From a virus: a stretch of 64,000 bases of DNA. The stretch lies in IMG/VR virus record IMGVR_UViG_3300010430_000007, positions 32,001-96,000 of that record; one strand, written 5' to 3'. Below the pieces are notes generated by a model, which saw only the letters and a list, made by a program, of their open reading frames with translations, had not been told where the DNA came from and ran no database searches. A program made the translations under genes and the position numbers. This document shows, piece after piece, positions 1 to 38,220 of this stretch (positions within the stretch are counted from its first letter, which is position 1; every line of letters begins with the position of its first letter).

Positions 1-143
1 CCTGTTCTAAAATAACCTCACCATTCATTGTCGATTCAACACATTCCCAAGGTAAATATCTACCTTCTATTCCTTTTAAATATTGTTTAACACTCATACT
101 TTCTCCTCTCTACATATCAAATGAAACCGTTGTTTCATGTCTT

Positions 144-698
144 TTAAATCCCTTGACTATTTTCCAACATATGTTGCCTAAATTCATCTATCTTGTCTGC
201 AAATTCAAGAGCTTTACTTTCTTCAAGTTGAAACTTGTATCCTTTACCATTGTAATCATGCCAAATAAAGAAATCATAATAACTCTCATATTCTTTCTCG
301 TCACCCTCGTACCAGTTGGATATTGATTCAAAAGATTCTCTAGTGAACTTTTTAATCATCCAACAAGTTCCATTTCCGCTTGGACGACATCTTTCTACAA
401 CATCTTCTGCTAATGAGTCCATGTTTCTAATATGGTGTGCCACCACATCAATACAACTGCATTCGTCGAATGTTTCTCTATACATGGTTTCGCAATATTC
501 TTTTTCACCACATTCTTTATCTTCTTTATGTAATTTTAAAATAGAAAATGCAAAATAAGTCTTATATACTTCATTCCAATTTTTTGGTGACCCATTATCA
601 AAACCATGCACGCTTGAATTCTTAGGATAGAATCTAAAAGTTAGTCTATCATCTTTAAAGTCTCTCATTACAAAATCTATTTTTCTTTTCTTTTTCAT
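144..698 (-). CDS. Hypothetical protein, 184 aa
   Basis: ORF with GGAGG RBS; no recognised motif. Confidence 0.8.
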   Translation of the reverse strand: MKKKRKIDFVMRDFKDDRLTFRFYPKNSSVHGFDNGSPKNWNEVYKTYFAFSILKLHKEDKECGEKEYCETMYRETFDECSCIDVVAHHIRNMDSLAEDVVERCRPSGNGTCWMIKKFTRESFESISNWYEGDEKEYESYYDFFIWHDYNGKGYKFQLEESKALEFADKIDEFRQHMLENSQGI

Positions 699-741
699 GT
701 TTCCTCCTTTAACTTACGATGAAACGCTCATTTTATCACTT

Positions 742-1554
742 CTATATCTTCAATTCATATCTATTAGATTTATCAATTTCAAATTCGTATGGATAAATTT
801 CTTGTAAATATGGTTTACTTTTTAGTTCGATTATCCTTTTGCAAAACTCAACCTCATCAGAAAATAGTTCGGTTTCGCTTCTGTCTTTAAATAATAATAT
901 ATTTGCAGTGCCTCCGACTGCGTAGACATTATAATCTATTCCGTATAATTTCATTTAATACCCTCCTAATTAACTTCAACGATATTTCCTTCTGGTAAAA
1001 GTTCTCCACCAGTTTCCAGCGCATAATCAAGCTGTTTGCTTAAAACTGTATTCCATCTAACCTGACCTAAAAACAGAGCTAATATACTTTCAACTTCTTC
1101 ATAGGTCACCACACCAGTCTGTAATTTTGATTTAATAGCCATTACTTGCTCTGTTACTTTCAATTCATAATCACTCATTTTACCTCCCTTATGAAATTCA
1201 GATTTTATCTGTTTATTCTTTCTCTAAATTATACTCAATCAATTTAACTCCATATTGCAAGTTTCTCTTACCAAACTTTACTTCTAAATAATTCAAATCA
1301 CTTGAATTCTTGCAATAGTTCATCATTTTTGACACAAGTTCTTCGTAGGTTCTGTACTTTCCATTCATATGATAATGTCTGTGCAACATTGTTAGTACTG
1401 TATGGATTAGCCTCTCTTCATAATATTCATAAGACCCATATATATTGTTTCCGTTCATTCTATATGCTGTCATCTGTATATCTCTAACTACTTCATATAC
1501 ATTTGAACCAGAGGCTTCACATATTGGAAATAGTCTTGTAACATATTTATCCAT
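742..1554 (-). other. Three small hypothetical ORFs (742-954, 966-1178, 1213-1554)
   Basis: Tandem co-oriented ORFs, each with an RBS. Confidence 0.75.
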
Positions 1555-1556
1555 AA

Positions 1557-1847
1557 TTACTCCTCCTTAATCAAATCTCTAATATCCTTACTTAAATCCC
1601 TAACCGCTTTAGTGCTTCCTTCCAGCTCTCTCAGCTCTGTATTGATTAATTTTAAAGAGTCGCTGAAAATATTTCCAATTTCAGACATTTCATTTCCAGC
1701 TTCGCCGAGTCTGGCTACACTGATTTTAATGTTAATGCTTAGATTATTTAATTGTTTAACCTGCTTCTCGATTAGCTTCAGTTTATCAAATGATGACGTA
1801 CTACCTTCAAATAATTGTATACTAATATTGTTTAATTCATTCTTCAT
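1557..1847 (-). CDS. Small protein resembling the MCP (chemoreceptor) signalling hairpin tip
   Basis: QLNNLSINIKISVARLGEAG resembles the MCP consensus QTNLLALNAAIEAARAGE(A/H)G; coiled-coil flanks. Confidence 0.55.
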   Translation of the reverse strand: MKNELNNISIQLFEGSTSSFDKLKLIEKQVKQLNNLSINIKISVARLGEAGNEMSEIGNIFSDSLKLINTELRELEGSTKAVRDLSKDIRDLIKEE

Positions 1848-1869
1848 TTAACTCCCTCCCTTTGAATAC

Positions 1870-1898
1870 ATCATATCATAACAAAAGCACAAAGTCAA
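1870..1898 (-). promoter_or_regulatory. sigmaA-type promoter
   Basis: Minus strand TTGACT-N17-TATGAT upstream of RBS. Confidence 0.75.
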
Positions 1899-34687: not shown

Positions 34688-35579
34688 TAGACTAACAAAT
34701 TAAATGGGAGGCAATAACATGAGTAAAAAGTTAGAAAAATTACACATATACATGAAAATGATGAAACGAATCGATCCCAATGGCTGTTGGGATGAGGTTG
34801 TAGAAATGATTAAAAATGAAGAGTCGAACGCATTCAATGAAATTGATTATGCGGTACAAGTATTAGAAAATTGGATGAGTGAAGCAGGAAATGAATGTTG
34901 TAGTATTTATATTGAGATGATTGAGAGATTCAAGAGGTTAAGAAAGGAGTTTTAAGTATGAAGCTGAAGATTATCAAGTTGTATCAATTGTAAAAATGAA
35001 TTAAAATAATCCTTGACAACCAATGAAATAAATGTTAATATTAAAGAGTAAAGAGTTTAATTGTATACGAGATATACAGAACTTGTGAATGACTTTAAGA
35101 CTATGCGAGAGATAGACAAGTCTATGAGGTGTAAATGATTTAATGTGATACGAGATATTGCGAATCATTTTGATTGATGAGAGGAGAGAATGAAATGAAA
35201 ACAAATGTGTTAGAATTATTAAAAGAAACTGAAATGAGCAAGAAATCAAGAGAGCAATCCGAGATAATTTATAAACAATTAGACATTGATTCATCTTATT
35301 TGATGGGAAGATGGTTCGAGGGAATTCAATTAGGAAAATTTAATATAAGCGTTCAGGCTTCTGGGGGTCACTACTGTAACCCTAGAAAAACATTGTTTGA
35401 TTTATCACAATATGAATCAATGGAATTAGCTGTATATAAGGCCGATAATAGTAATTTCTTTAGGGATGTTGACTTCTTTGAAGGATTCAATAGAATTGAT
35501 GAGTTAAAAGAAAGATTTGAAGGTACTGTATTTGGTGCTGTACCTATTGATTTAATTAATGACTTTATTGATTATTTAA

Positions 35580-35610
35580 AGACTCTATAATATGAGTCTT
35601 TTTCTTTTCA
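35580..35610 (+). terminator. Intrinsic terminator
   Basis: AAGACTC-TATAATAT-GAGTCTT followed by T-run. Confidence 0.75.
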
Positions 35611-36508
35611 TCTTTACATAGATACATTTAAATATACCAAATAAAACTCTTATTTCATCTACATATTTAAAACTGTCTAATCGTATACAATCATGCGACT
35701 TCACTAGCAAGAATCATGCCAGAACATATCGATATAAATCTAAATGGCTGTGATATAGTGGTTGCAATGGAAATAGAGTTATTGAGTTGACAATACTAGG
35801 TATAGGTGAGGTGATAAAAGTTGATACATGTTATTTTGAAAATAATATTGATTTACTCTTTATAGTGTGGTAGAATTAACTATAAATTAATTGGAGGTAA
35901 ATAGATAATGACTAGAGAACAGATTGATAAAAATAATGCAATTTCAAATGTGTGTTGGAACATTATATCTAAGTATAAAGGGACTGATGAATTTAGAAAA
36001 TTTATGTTCCCAGACTCAATAAGCTTAGAGTATTCCGTTGACAATGATATTGATGTTTTTGTGATATGGTATGATGACAGAGAAAATCAGGAGATAATCC
36101 CTGTTTACTATTCTAGAATAAAACTAGGACTACAAAAGTTTTTAAACACTAAAATTTCAAATATAGAATGGAGGTAATAAAATGAGAACTCATATTACAC
36201 CAGACCAATTAGCAGAGCTGTCAGATTTGGATATTGTAGAAGTATTTAAATATGTAAATAGAACCAAGTATATAGTTAGAGATACAACCAATTACAACAG
36301 TATTGACGTTGTAAGATATGACGAACCAGATAGACAAGTTTGTAGAATACATTATGATAGATATTCTCACATAACTGGACAAGAACTGTGTGAGATGTTA
36401 AACGTATCTAAAATAATTGAAATTCTAACAAATGATGATGACGTTATCATTAATACACTTTGGAATTTATTGAAAACAAAAATAGTTTAAAAAAGTTTTG
36501 ATATTTTG

Positions 36509-36538
36509 TTGACTTTTTATGTTGCCTCGTGCTATAAT
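36509..36538 (+). promoter_or_regulatory. sigmaA-type promoter
   Basis: TTGACT-N18-TATAAT. Confidence 0.65.
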
Positions 36539-37449
36539 AAGTTATAGAAATTAAGGAGGTAACAAAATGAAATTAACTGAAAAGACACATAAAACAATCT
36601 TATTTATAAAAGCAGGGTTCAACACAATGGGTGAAGGTGGAAAGCGTGGGATTGATTCAAAAGTCGGTACAGGATTAAGACATCCAAGTGCACCATTATA
36701 CAACACTAAAAAGAATGACAGAAACTCAGTAATAAATGAACTAAAAGAAAACAATCTAATCACAGAAGACGAAAACGGATTATATTCAAATACATCTGAA
36801 GGTGATAAGTATATACAAGAATCTTTTAATAGTATCGGCGGATTTGCTCTAATTTACAGAAGTTCTTGTAATCAGTTTGGTAATTCTTATCTAGTATTGG
36901 AGACATACGAAGAAATAGCAAACACTAAAACAACAGAATTTTCAAGTAGTAATTTTAAAATGTTCTTTGACTTTGGAAATTATGAAGAGTGGAACACTAA
37001 CAGAAAAGAGTCAAATAAAAATGAAGACTTGCAAAGAGTAAACAATCTGTTTGAAGAATTCAAATTAATGATTGAAAAGATTATCAACGATAAGGAAGCT
37101 TTTAAATTGTTTGATAACGACATTGAAAAAGTGTGCATAACTGCAACTTCTGTAGCATTAAAAAATAAGGAGTACAATGATTTTAATTACAGGGCGATGT
37201 TAAGAAAGCAAATAAAACAACATATAAAGACTTTAAAGGCTGATGAATAATCAGTCTTTTTTATTGTAACACCATCAAATAGATAATCATCTAACAAACC
37301 ACCCTCACAAATCAATGCACATCAAGAGATAATCAAATTTTAGTGCTATGGTATTCTGAGAGTGTAAAAGCCGTTAGAATGGACGCATAGACGTTGTAGA
37401 GTTATGTATAATTTATTGAAACTTTTTATAATTAATTTTGGTTATTTTG

Positions 37450-37478
37450 TTGACAGGGTTGGTATATGGGTGTATAAT
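37450..37478 (+). promoter_or_regulatory. sigmaA-type promoter
   Basis: TTGACA-N17-TATAAT. Confidence 0.8.
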
Positions 37479-38220
37479 GGTGTTAGTTAATAAAGCGGAT
37501 TACTTGAGGAGGTAACGAGATGGCTAAGAAAATTCAAATTATTGCTGAGCATATTGAAAGAACGACAACCCCAAAGATTTACGAGTTTGATTCAAACGGA
37601 TACTATTTTATAGTCGCTGACAAAGCAGAAGATTATGGTGATGGTAAAATAAAAGCAATCGTAGGTAAAGACTTTCTGATTATTGAAAAGTTTGATGTGC
37701 TGAGCCGTGAAGAGACTACAGTCAGTGAAATGGATTTAAAATTAGAACAGGCAAATATCAACATCGATTTATTGGTTGGTAGATTAGTAGATGAAGAGAA
37801 GAACCGTCACAGTGGTATCTGTATGATTATGAAGCAGGGAATTGACTGTGTTGGTAATGGTGATTGTGTAAGTTGTCGTGAAAAGTATTGGGACGACTAC
37901 AAGGAAGAAATGAAGAGAAATTATAGGGTTGAATAAGGAGGATTTGAGATGGAAAAGTACAACAAAGAAAGTGTAGTAACAAACTACTACACGGCACAAA
38001 ATGCTATAATGAATATAGGAATTATGGAAGACATTCCAGAGGAGCTACATGGTCTTTGTATTAATGCTTCTGTGGCTATCAGCAAGATTGTAGACTACAT
38101 CAATAAAGATGAATAGACCACTAGAAATAGTGGTTTTCTTCTACCGCAAACATAGACACATTTACATATGATGAAATAAAGATTTCATTCAATTAATTTG
38201 AATTAATTTGCGTTTATGGG

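Follow-up and report, generated by a model that had tools for sequence, protein, structure and literature searches.

A repeated 18-bp palindrome, ATGAAA-N6-TTTCAT, marks the gene boundaries of the accessory region in a 64,000-bp stretch of viral DNA (the window), which comprises bases 32001-96000 of a complete phage genome of 133,911 bp (IMG/VR record IMGVR_UViG_3300010430_000007; here G000) with direct terminal repeats and a G+C content of 31.9%. Comparison with other phages carrying the palindrome indicates that its 6-bp core is a conserved locus-specific label and not a neutral spacer. With modest confidence, we favour the reading that the elements are dif/lox-like recombination sites whose spacers are heterospecific and to which a phage tyrosine recombinase of the Xer-like type binds. 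The comparative support for recombination appears substantial, but it is confined to relatives carrying the same element (the pairs SPbeta/phi3T and G001/G005, described below), like whose sites those of G000 would presumably behave. We infer that a protein binds the element and that a recombinase acts and exchanges strands there.

An 18-bp palindrome at the boundaries of accessory genes

The palindrome occurred in 15 exact copies in the window, compared with 0.04 +/- 0.20 in shuffled sequences; an earlier annotation made from the letters alone (the sequence-only reading) had already described it. When up to two mismatches were allowed, 49 copies were found versus 21.9 expected, and the strict degenerate form WTRAAA-N6-TTTYAW matched at 37 places in the window and at 56 genome-wide, nearly all within genome positions 18-70 kb. 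The sequence-only reading had counted about 35 copies between window positions 121 and 38188; 36 of the 37 strict sites lay there, the copies it had quoted (121, 4149, 9564 and 26123) were recovered at those coordinates, and the site at 53957 was, as it had stated, the only one beyond 44 kb. The core of exactly 6 nt that it had described also held genome-wide, with 22 exact copies at N6 and none or one at each other spacing from 0 to 15. Position 7 of the element was enriched for T and position 12 for A, and weak CC..GG flanks were present.

Nearly all these sites belong to the early/accessory array (window 1-34332, minus strand), which was delimited by GC skew, the list of open reading frames (ORFs) and strand blocks. 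It holds approximately 90 small, mostly unannotatable ORFs together with several strong sigma-A-type promoters and GC-rich terminators, and beyond window 34.3 kb the gene direction flips to the plus strand. ORFs were taken from a simple longest-ORF caller, and a few of the coding flags at sites are artefacts of over-long starts. Read in transcript orientation, 29 of the 33 sites in the minus-strand region lay between -4 and +8 nt past the upstream stop codon, which agrees with the location just 3' of a stop and 5' of a ribosome-binding site (RBS) proposed previously. Usually, about 5 nt separated the stop codon from the element, and a further 12-28 nt, with the RBS among them, separated the element from the start codon. 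At the three ORFs for which the element's own TGA had been claimed as the stop codon (5301, 6264 and 13172), this was indeed the case; the sites begin at 5287, 6250 and 13158, and the plus strand there reads TCA.

The distance from element to stop codon was tight while that to the next start was loose, and a few sites were followed by a TTGACA promoter-like box or a conserved leader of approximately 65 nt instead of a bare RBS. Taken together, these features argue that the element is tied to the gene boundary and not to translation initiation, and the TTGACA boxes imply that sites occur at operon starts too. Boxes of this type follow palindromes at window 5973-6001, 13116-13144 and about 32440 (minus strand). 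The leader, which may be a promoter or a 5'-untranslated-region element, is present in three minus-strand copies between a palindrome and the next start (window 4465-4543, 17657-17735 and 23940-24018), with the consensus ..GGTTTTG.AAT.GC.GTAAG..TTGAAA..ACTA.A.AGTTAAAAATAGAAAATAGGAGG; a fourth candidate at 14022-14100 aligned poorly.

The same element in SPbeta and other phages

G000 was placed in the SPbeta supergroup because it encodes a YonO-type single-subunit RNA polymerase, a terminase, a portal protein and a YomM-like recombinase, and by this gene content it is a distant SPbeta-like siphovirus. Its YonO homologue (window 46873-49455, plus strand, 860 aa) is 46% identical to SPbeta YonO and 51% identical to the counterpart on a Clostridium phage D-1873 contig. 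Pattern scans of IMG/VR retrieved a 143-kb contig with 91 copies at up to one mismatch (G001) and, in a second scan, a complete 160-kb genome with 43 exact copies (G005) and two more contigs with 8 and 5. G000 and G001 have only 13 detectable proteins in common, at 21-54% identity, and nearly no nucleotide similarity; their arms are the same. An unbiased count of all 6-N(0-12)-6 palindromes ranked ATGAAA-N6 first in both genomes, and the same count in SPbeta ranked ATAAAA-N6-TTTTAT first (13 copies versus 0.3 expected). Among spacings, N6 likewise ranked highest in SPbeta, in G001 and in the D-1873 contig. SPbeta and phi3T each carry 34 strict sites in the yop-yot early operons, with a similar geometry of stop codon, ATAAAA-N6-TTTTAW, RBS and start. 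The element thus appears, from this distribution, to be a hallmark of a phage supergroup that includes SPbeta. We found no mention of the palindrome in the SPbeta literature searched, a search that did not cover the original 1999 genome paper.

G000 itself has no close relative among the sequences searched. Megablast and blastn searches with window 1-12000 and 1-8000 against 50,697 phage records returned only similarity to the RtcB gene, the 788-aa protein of G000 gave no match in IMG/VR, and its YonO retrieved from the same database only relatives at about 50% identity. Three further genomes (G002, G004 and G006) shared no more cores with G000 than expected by chance. G006 was also tried as a close relative of G005 and rejected.

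The core is unique within a genome and shared between relatives

No two sites of the same genome had identical cores, in either orientation, in G000, G001, G005, SPbeta or phi3T, where 2.6, 5.1, 4.5, 0.7 and 0.7 identical pairs, respectively, were expected (about 13.7 overall). Similarly, core pairs differing at one position were depleted in G000 (18 versus 35 expected, p=0.001), and palindromic cores were absent from five independent genomes (5.7 expected). The sequence-only reading, which had described the core as essentially always different, was therefore right within the genome; the core is, however, not arbitrary, as it was conserved at equivalent junctions of related phages. Specifically, G001 and G005 had 38 identical-core pairs, all in one orientation and perfectly collinear, and SPbeta and phi3T had 24 in collinear order, while unrelated genome pairs shared 0-7 identical cores in mixed orientation. 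Among the collinear G001/G005 site pairs, the core carried 0, 1 and 2 mismatches in 38, 3 and 7 pairs, whereas 17 of the 38 pairs with identical cores differed at the G/A and C/T positions of the arms, so that conservation was stronger in the core than at the degenerate positions of the arms. In 32 of these 38 pairs neither flanking ORF had a detectable homologue in the partner, and the intervals between consecutive shared sites differed in length (481 versus 235, 216 versus 876 and 785 versus 285 bp).

The analogy with Tn916-type integrases, which recombine across non-homologous coupling sequences, had been put forward for the variable core and did not survive this comparison. Since no core recurs in a genome while partner sites have the same one, the cores would follow the logic of heterospecific lox or dif spacers, not of tolerated heterology. 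The element also has the anatomy of a tyrosine-recombinase core site, with inverted arms around a fixed 6-bp centre that is asymmetric (non-palindromic).

Homology breaks and laboratory junctions at the sites

Where SPbeta and phi3T are homologous, their identity is 90-100%, so that divergence was no issue for mapping breakpoints. Their identity started at the first base of the element (left arm) at SPbeta 83687, 92393, 92752, 113663 and 131161, and stopped within the right arm at 86885. At SPbeta 87598 the arms alone were shared, and the core present there in phi3T recurred at SPbeta 88399, beyond yoqH-yoqI. Among the 24 identical-core pairs, flanking homology was found on both sides in 9, downstream only in 7, upstream only in 4 and on neither side in 4, which places 15 of the 24 at a homology break. 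Within the early region of the two phages, synteny was broken at 11 of 13 junctions with a site and 24 of 61 without (p=0.005), and the excess persisted when only gaps of at least 25 nt were considered (p=0.012).

Laboratory recombinants between phi3Ts and SPbeta provided further junctions. Dragos et al. reported 17 of them (bioRxiv 10.1101/2020.05.06.055103, Suppl. Table 1), 15 of which lie within homologies of at least 400 bp, most above 1.4 kb (bioRxiv 10.1101/2020.05.06.055103). Two long junctions served to calibrate our conversion of the published chromosome coordinates (constant 2,286,449). Junction 7, with 30 bp of homology (SPbeta 69417/phi3Ts 62446), corresponded to the identical-core pair 69423/62422, and its 30 bp were the element plus a few flanking bases. 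The sole junction classed as non-homologous, N1, had its SPbeta end at about 116416, within site 116414-116431, and its phi3Ts end at 107382, 14 nt from the partner site 107396-107413. Both site pairs had been marked earlier in the analysis as identical sites with unrelated flanks, of which there are five or six (including SPbeta 69423, 88399, 116414, 117534 and 118469). By a rough estimate, usage per base pair at these sites is about two orders of magnitude above that of ordinary homology.

The idea of a gene-cassette array built by site-specific recombination, also raised by the sequence-only reading, was supported in part: the SPbeta/phi3T breakpoints and synteny breaks, the G001/G005 cores and the two laboratory junctions speak for it, all of them in relatives of G000. 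For G000, contigs of the stretch are present in four marine-sediment metagenome runs, and the sources listed for it include no RNA dataset. On window 1-20000 these contigs, at a depth of about 5x that is too shallow for rare circles, showed neither excised circles nor joints at the motif. The one joint in that interval (8495->18491, with a 22-nt side) lay away from the sites, and loose contig ends were mostly off sites, with 2282 inside site 2273-2290 and 709 at 10 nt from site 719.

Candidate recombinases

That the window holds no recombinase gene, as claimed from its letters, was correct; two tyrosine-recombinase genes are located elsewhere in G000, at genome 23427-24290 (minus strand) and at 107602-108624 (the YomM homologue), with PF00589 matches at 23466-23933 and 108268-108582. 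The G000 YomM-like protein is 53% identical to SPbeta YomM, and a YomM-like gene was found in the late region of every motif-bearing genome examined that was complete or nearly so. SPbeta, G000, G001 and G005 encode in addition a second, early Xer-like recombinase. In G000 this early protein matched XerA, XerC and XerD structures (E 1e-18 to 1e-12) and keeps the Arg, the Lys, the His-x-x-Arg and the Tyr nucleophile, while the YomM-like versions of G001 and G005 are canonical in their catalytic residues. All candidates show the two-domain Xer/Cre architecture, a type that binds inverted arms around a 6-8-bp overlap. A rare late-region site (genome 107518-107535; window coordinate 75518, outside the window) is located 66 nt upstream of the YomM-like gene.

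Proposed exchange of genes between matching sites

If the elements are recombination sites, a homodimeric recombinase, likely the early Xer-like protein or the YomM homologue, would use the two inverted 6-7-bp arms, with consensus (C)ATGAAA(T), as its half-sites. Between the arms would lie an asymmetric overlap of constant length (6 bp) whose sequence is specific to the junction. Each site would form the 5' border of one RBS-ORF-stop unit of the accessory arrays. The late genes of SPbeta are the YonO-transcribed set (PMC5467207), and the SPbeta counterpart of the site-bearing region lies outside it; in G000 the accessory array would presumably be transcribed by the host RNA polymerase. With a different core at every site of a genome, the approximately 50 sites could not recombine with one another and delete genes. 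The matching junction in a co-infecting or resident relative would carry the same core, and recombination would thus occur only between equivalent junctions. Two events of this kind would replace the content of a slot, one gene or several, with order, polarity and expression signals kept, and the TGA within the left arm (TAA in SPbeta) could double as the stop codon of the incoming gene. Going further, we regard as plausible, though short of probable, that this constitutes a natural address system, in which the 6-bp core would be a slot number shared across the phage population and YomM or its early paralogue would swap single genes without flanking homology. That every intercistronic junction of the accessory arrays would bear a recombinase site, with partners either co-infecting or resident, is a proposal we make just as tentatively.

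Several observations weigh against recombination sites of this kind, and our confidence was kept modest partly because G000 has no close relative in which its cores could be compared collinearly. Canonical recombinase-binding elements measure 11-13 bp, more than the conserved arms do (6-7 bp plus weak flanks). As to the enzymes, Asp takes the place of the second His of Xer proteins in the early protein of G000, and YomM of both SPbeta and G000 keeps the Tyr, but Lys replaces the second catalytic Arg. Arms and proteins do not vary together either: G000 and G001 have the same arms, yet their early recombinases are unrelated and their YomM-like proteins only 24% identical, and SPbeta YomM is 53% identical to that of G000, yet the SPbeta motif is ATAAAA. 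Only 10-12 of the 46 ends of high-scoring segment pairs in the SPbeta/phi3T early region fell at sites, with about 34 elsewhere. Finally, G001 and G005 also share other short islands (RBSs and promoter-like repeats), part of their seemingly unrelated flanks may be extremely diverged orthologues and not replacements, and an island of 21-30 bp could be used by the Sak4-like annealing protein of the phage.

Alternative explanations

The main rival of the recombination-site reading, which we consider unlikely, is that the palindromes are operator-like sites for a dimeric DNA-binding protein, serving as roadblock, silencer or temporal shut-off of early genes in the way of cluster A stoperators or of MrpR at SPBRE. 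A genome-wide repressor or roadblock system was also the second option offered by the sequence-only reading. Recombination would then happen there, with the same low probability, only because nothing but the sites is conserved between the diverged genes, with the phage annealing protein recombining these short homologies, and SPbeta does encode a Sak4-like annealing protein according to its annotation. The arms act as independent half-sites, and the sites are confined to early/accessory arrays with nearly none in the late/structural region (the YonO-transcribed set in SPbeta), both of which would suit an operator. A precedent exists in SPbeta MrpR, a recombinase-fold protein that serves purely as a repressor (PMC10516654). 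However, an operator leaves unexplained why the 6-bp core is better conserved than the wobble positions of the arms and why repeated or palindromic cores are absent within genomes. Moreover, G000 and G001, whose arms are identical, have no small DNA-binding protein in common, even at E 0.05, and a search of both genomes for YopR (MrpR) gave no homologue. SPBRE, like the palindrome, is a repeated intergenic element of this phage family and is bound by a protein of tyrosine-recombinase fold (PMC10516654); it is a 15-bp sequence present at about 10 SPbeta promoters, to which MrpR binds (PMC10516654). The two elements are not the same, as the motif common to ten promoters from chromatin affinity precipitation sequencing (ChAP-seq) is approximately ACAAAAAATATGTAT, unlike the palindrome.

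We next weigh an intercistronic RNA hairpin (stem of 6-7 bp, loop of 4-6 nt) that would act in processing, stability or translational insulation of polycistronic early mRNAs, which we hold to be very unlikely. The element does lie on the transcript between a stop codon and the next RBS, its folding energy ranges from -2.2 to -8.7 kcal/mol, and the T at position 7 and A at position 12 would lengthen the stem to 7 bp. The arms nevertheless vary independently, as the sequence-only reading had noticed: in RNA sense, the oppositions at positions 3/16 were A.C in 10 and G.U in 8 cases in G000, and 22 and 9 in G001, so that A.C was as common as G.U or commoner. Seven outer and three inner position pairs, tested in G000 and G001, revealed no covariation; pairing in the flanks and the inner core, four flanking positions included, was at or below the level of shuffled partners in both genomes. 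In SPbeta the element is all A-U in RNA, often with a terminal A.A, and it is not obvious what role in RNA a conserved but locus-specific loop would have. On the grounds of weak folding, no covariation and the A.C oppositions, a structured RNA or intrinsic terminator was rejected, as was an identity with promoters or terminators in general, since the actual promoters and the GC-rich terminator hairpins of the region sit elsewhere.

Extremely unlikely, in our view, are single-stranded DNA hairpins recognised in folded form during replication, like integron attC sites or substrates of HUH enzymes: the palindromic arms and the integron-like order of RBS-ORF-stop and site, with stop codons inside the site, would fit, but it is arm sequence and not structure that is conserved (one strand would have A.C mismatches in a third of the sites), 18 bp is far smaller than attC, the recombinases are Xer-like, and no IntI/attI platform or HUH gene was seen.

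Comparison with known systems

Heterospecific lox and FRT variants have common inverted arms and different asymmetric spacers, and only like spacers recombine. Several such sites can therefore coexist without deletion, and in cassette exchange the cassette between two different sites is swapped precisely. The natural array described here appears to share this logic, although lox/FRT exchange is engineered and uses 13-bp arms and 8-bp spacers.

The pdif sites and dif modules of Acinetobacter plasmids appear by analogy to be the closest counterpart, and site-specific recombination with matching overlaps would be the one known parallel to this combination of features. As in the phages, many Xer-type sites with a 6-bp spacer punctuate accessory genes, and related replicons hold different modules between the same sites (PMC13141974; PMC6449649). 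Only pdif sites whose 6-bp spacers are the same or almost the same recombine, and replacement of a module requires two events (PMC13141974). The differences are nonetheless considerable. A pdif site has two different 11-bp arms, for XerC and XerD of the host, and the handful of sites per plasmid alternate in orientation (C and D modules). The phage element has short symmetric arms, which imply a single homodimeric protein, and 50-90 sites per genome, approximately one per gene, located directly past stop codons within operons. Candidate recombinases are here phage-encoded. An assignment to the dif-module class was rejected given the symmetric arms of 6-7 bp and the single orientation of all collinear pairs.

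Integron cassettes resemble the phage units in being promoterless ORFs, each bounded by a site with conserved inverted ends and a variable centre, in often having the stop codon in the site, and in the tyrosine recombinase that acts in integrons and is a candidate here. An attC site is, however, 57-141 bp long, is recognised by structure as folded single-stranded DNA and inserts at one attI next to intI, whereas the 18-bp phage element has no platform and exchange appears to be allelic, into the same slot. The integron class was also rejected because the sites are defined by sequence without structural covariation and the Xer-like recombinases are far from the array.

Cluster A stoperators are asymmetric and orientation-dependent, and a stoperator-type roadblock was rejected for the palindromic element. 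They and the 17-bp repeats of cluster O mycobacteriophages resemble it as short motifs, dyad-symmetric in cluster O and repressor-bound in cluster A, that recur over 30 times in a genome, for the most part in narrow intergenic gaps among non-structural genes (PMC4351075). The cluster O repeats have a 3-bp centre, mostly TTT/AAA, and according to the authors few if any take part in insertions, deletions or rearrangements (PMC4351075). Neither group has locus-specific conserved cores, unlike the phage element.

Implications for phage mosaicism

Phage genomes are mosaics with breakpoints at gene boundaries, and a decades-long debate concerns their origin, either in random illegitimate recombination with subsequent selection or in dedicated linkers. 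An element with the anatomy of a recombinase site was found here to mark gene boundaries across a phage supergroup that includes the model phage SPbeta. Unique centres within each genome, shared order between relatives with differing genes, and low-homology laboratory junctions at the sites all point to addressed, site-specific gene exchange. If true, this would be a molecular implementation of the linker model of Botstein and a natural counterpart of heterospecific-lox cassette exchange. It would also explain how dozens of small accessory genes, typically involved in defence, counter-defence or host takeover, turn over in phages of 130-160 kb with operons intact, would assign a role to the YomM/YopP recombinases, which are conserved yet unexplained, and would make a set of mutually orthogonal recombination sites available as a compact natural toolkit.

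Sites in the window

The individual sites, as pattern matches in window coordinates, are given below; distances to stops and starts within the early array follow the minus-strand transcript. At the left end, site 121-138 (ATGAAA-ccgttg-TTTCAT) follows the stop of ORF 144-698 (minus strand) by 5 nt and precedes the next start by 23 nt, and site 719-736 (ATGAAA-cgctca-TTTTAT) lies 5 nt past a stop and 20 nt before a start. Site 1191-1208 (ATGAAA-ttcaga-TTTTAT) is 4 nt past a stop, and site 2273-2290 (ATAAAA-caatct-TTTCAT) is 5 nt past that of the RtcB RNA ligase gene (2296-3477, minus strand). Site 4149-4166 (ATGAAA-gcttga-TTTCAT) has its stop 4 nt before, while the match at 4231-4248 (ATAAAA-agagta-TTTTAT) lies within ORF 4171-4476 and is probably due to chance. 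Two sites follow their stops by 5 nt, 4544-4561 (ATGAAA-tttcga-TTTCAA), after which comes the conserved leader of about 65 nt and no bare RBS, and 4945-4962 (TTGAAA-tgacgg-TTTTAT).

The element's own minus-strand TGA ends ORF 5301-5507 at site 5287-5304 (ATGAAA-ttgctg-TTTCAT) and ORF 6264-6509 at site 6250-6267 (ATGAAA-tacatc-TTTCAT). Between them, a degenerate site with two mismatches (6016-6033) overlaps the stop of ORF 6030-6260 and is followed by a TTGACA promoter-like box. Site 7005-7022 (ATGAAA-gtctta-TTTCAT) is 6 nt past a stop, 7635-7652 (ATGAAA-gaacaa-TTTCAT) adjoins the stop of ORF 7652-7867, and 8857-8874 (TTAAAA-tatgaa-TTTTAT) and 9117-9134 (ATAAAA-ttgtaa-TTTCAT) lie 7 and 4 nt past stops, respectively. 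Immediately past the stop of ORF 9582-9995 is site 9564-9581 (ATGAAA-tagatg-TTTCAT); it is followed along the window by 9983-10000 (ATAAAA-tcgcca-TTTCAT; stop 6 nt before), 10363-10380 (ATGAAA-tttaac-TTTCAT; 5 nt), 10577-10594 (ATGAAA-gattca-TTTCAT; 4 nt) and 12275-12292 (ATAAAA-taacat-TTTCAT; 3 nt).

Site 12913-12930 (TTGAAA-cacacg-TTTCAT) also lies immediately past a stop, and at 13158-13175 (ATGAAA-tgtagt-TTTCAT) the own TGA is the stop of ORF 13172-13474, with a TTGACA promoter-like box next. Stops precede by 5 nt the sites 14101-14118 (TTGAAA-tgaaga-TTTTAT), 16839-16856 (degenerate, ATGAAT-tatcaa-TTTCAT, with one mismatch) and 17056-17073 (ATGAAA-taactg-TTTCAT), by 6 nt site 16071-16088 (ATAAAA-ctaatg-TTTCAT), and by 7 nt site 17736-17753 (ATGAAA-tagccg-TTTCAA), which continues into the conserved leader. 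Site 19508-19525 (ATGAAA-gcaaga-TTTCAT) is placed in a 320-nt gap between ORFs 19099-19410 and 19734-19937, with a terminator and promoters nearby. Further on are 19964-19981 (ATGAAA-ttggca-TTTTAT; stop 2 nt before), 22459-22476 (TTGAAA-tctatg-TTTTAT; 6 nt), 24019-24036 (ATGAAA-cgacga-TTTTAT; 8 nt, conserved leader next) and 26123-26140 (ATGAAA-cctata-TTTCAT; 6 nt past the stop of ORF 26147-26857).

Towards the end of the array, site 31746-31763 (ATGAAA-ttctaa-TTTCAA) is 41 nt past a stop and 25 nt before the start of the gene for the 788-aa protein (29354-31720), 32472-32489 (ATGAAA-ttttca-TTTCAT) is intergenic with a TTGACA box next, and 33385-33402 (ATGAAA-tagtac-TTTTAT) is 6 nt past a stop. 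Site 34574-34591 (TTGAAA-gagtta-TTTTAT) occupies the divergent switch region between minus- and plus-strand genes, and 35641-35658 (ATAAAA-ctctta-TTTCAT) and the intergenic 38171-38188 (ATGAAA-taaaga-TTTCAT) are in the plus-strand gene region. The sole site in the late/structural half of the window, 53957-53974 (ATGAAA-tacgaa-TTTTAT), lies 38 nt past the stop of ORF 53550-53918.

Other repeats and genes

Additional repeats accompany the palindrome in its relatives. A second repeat of SPbeta (NC_001884) and phi3T (KY030782), approximately TAGAATAAAAATAAAATTA, is present in at least 15 copies, often directly after the palindrome (for instance at SPbeta 132764-132783, 120655-120676 and 90636-90654), and differs from the SPBRE-like motif. 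A conserved 16-nt box, ATAGAACATCTGTTCC, precedes some sites of the G001/G005 clade, and the repeat TTTTAAGGTTTTGTTCTAT recurs in intergenic regions; examples of these boxes and repeats are found at G001 122068-122105 and 117470-117508 and at G005 61753-61790. Homing-endonuclease-like genes of the HNH(-AP2) type are located at window 54093-55154 (plus strand) and 10862-11365 (minus strand), and HNH-AP2 proteins are among the few common to G000 and G001 (33-43% identity). The best-conserved protein of these two genomes is a DprA/Smf-like protein of 190 aa (54% identity), encoded outside the window at genome 19311-19883, whose gene is also their sole match at the nucleotide level.

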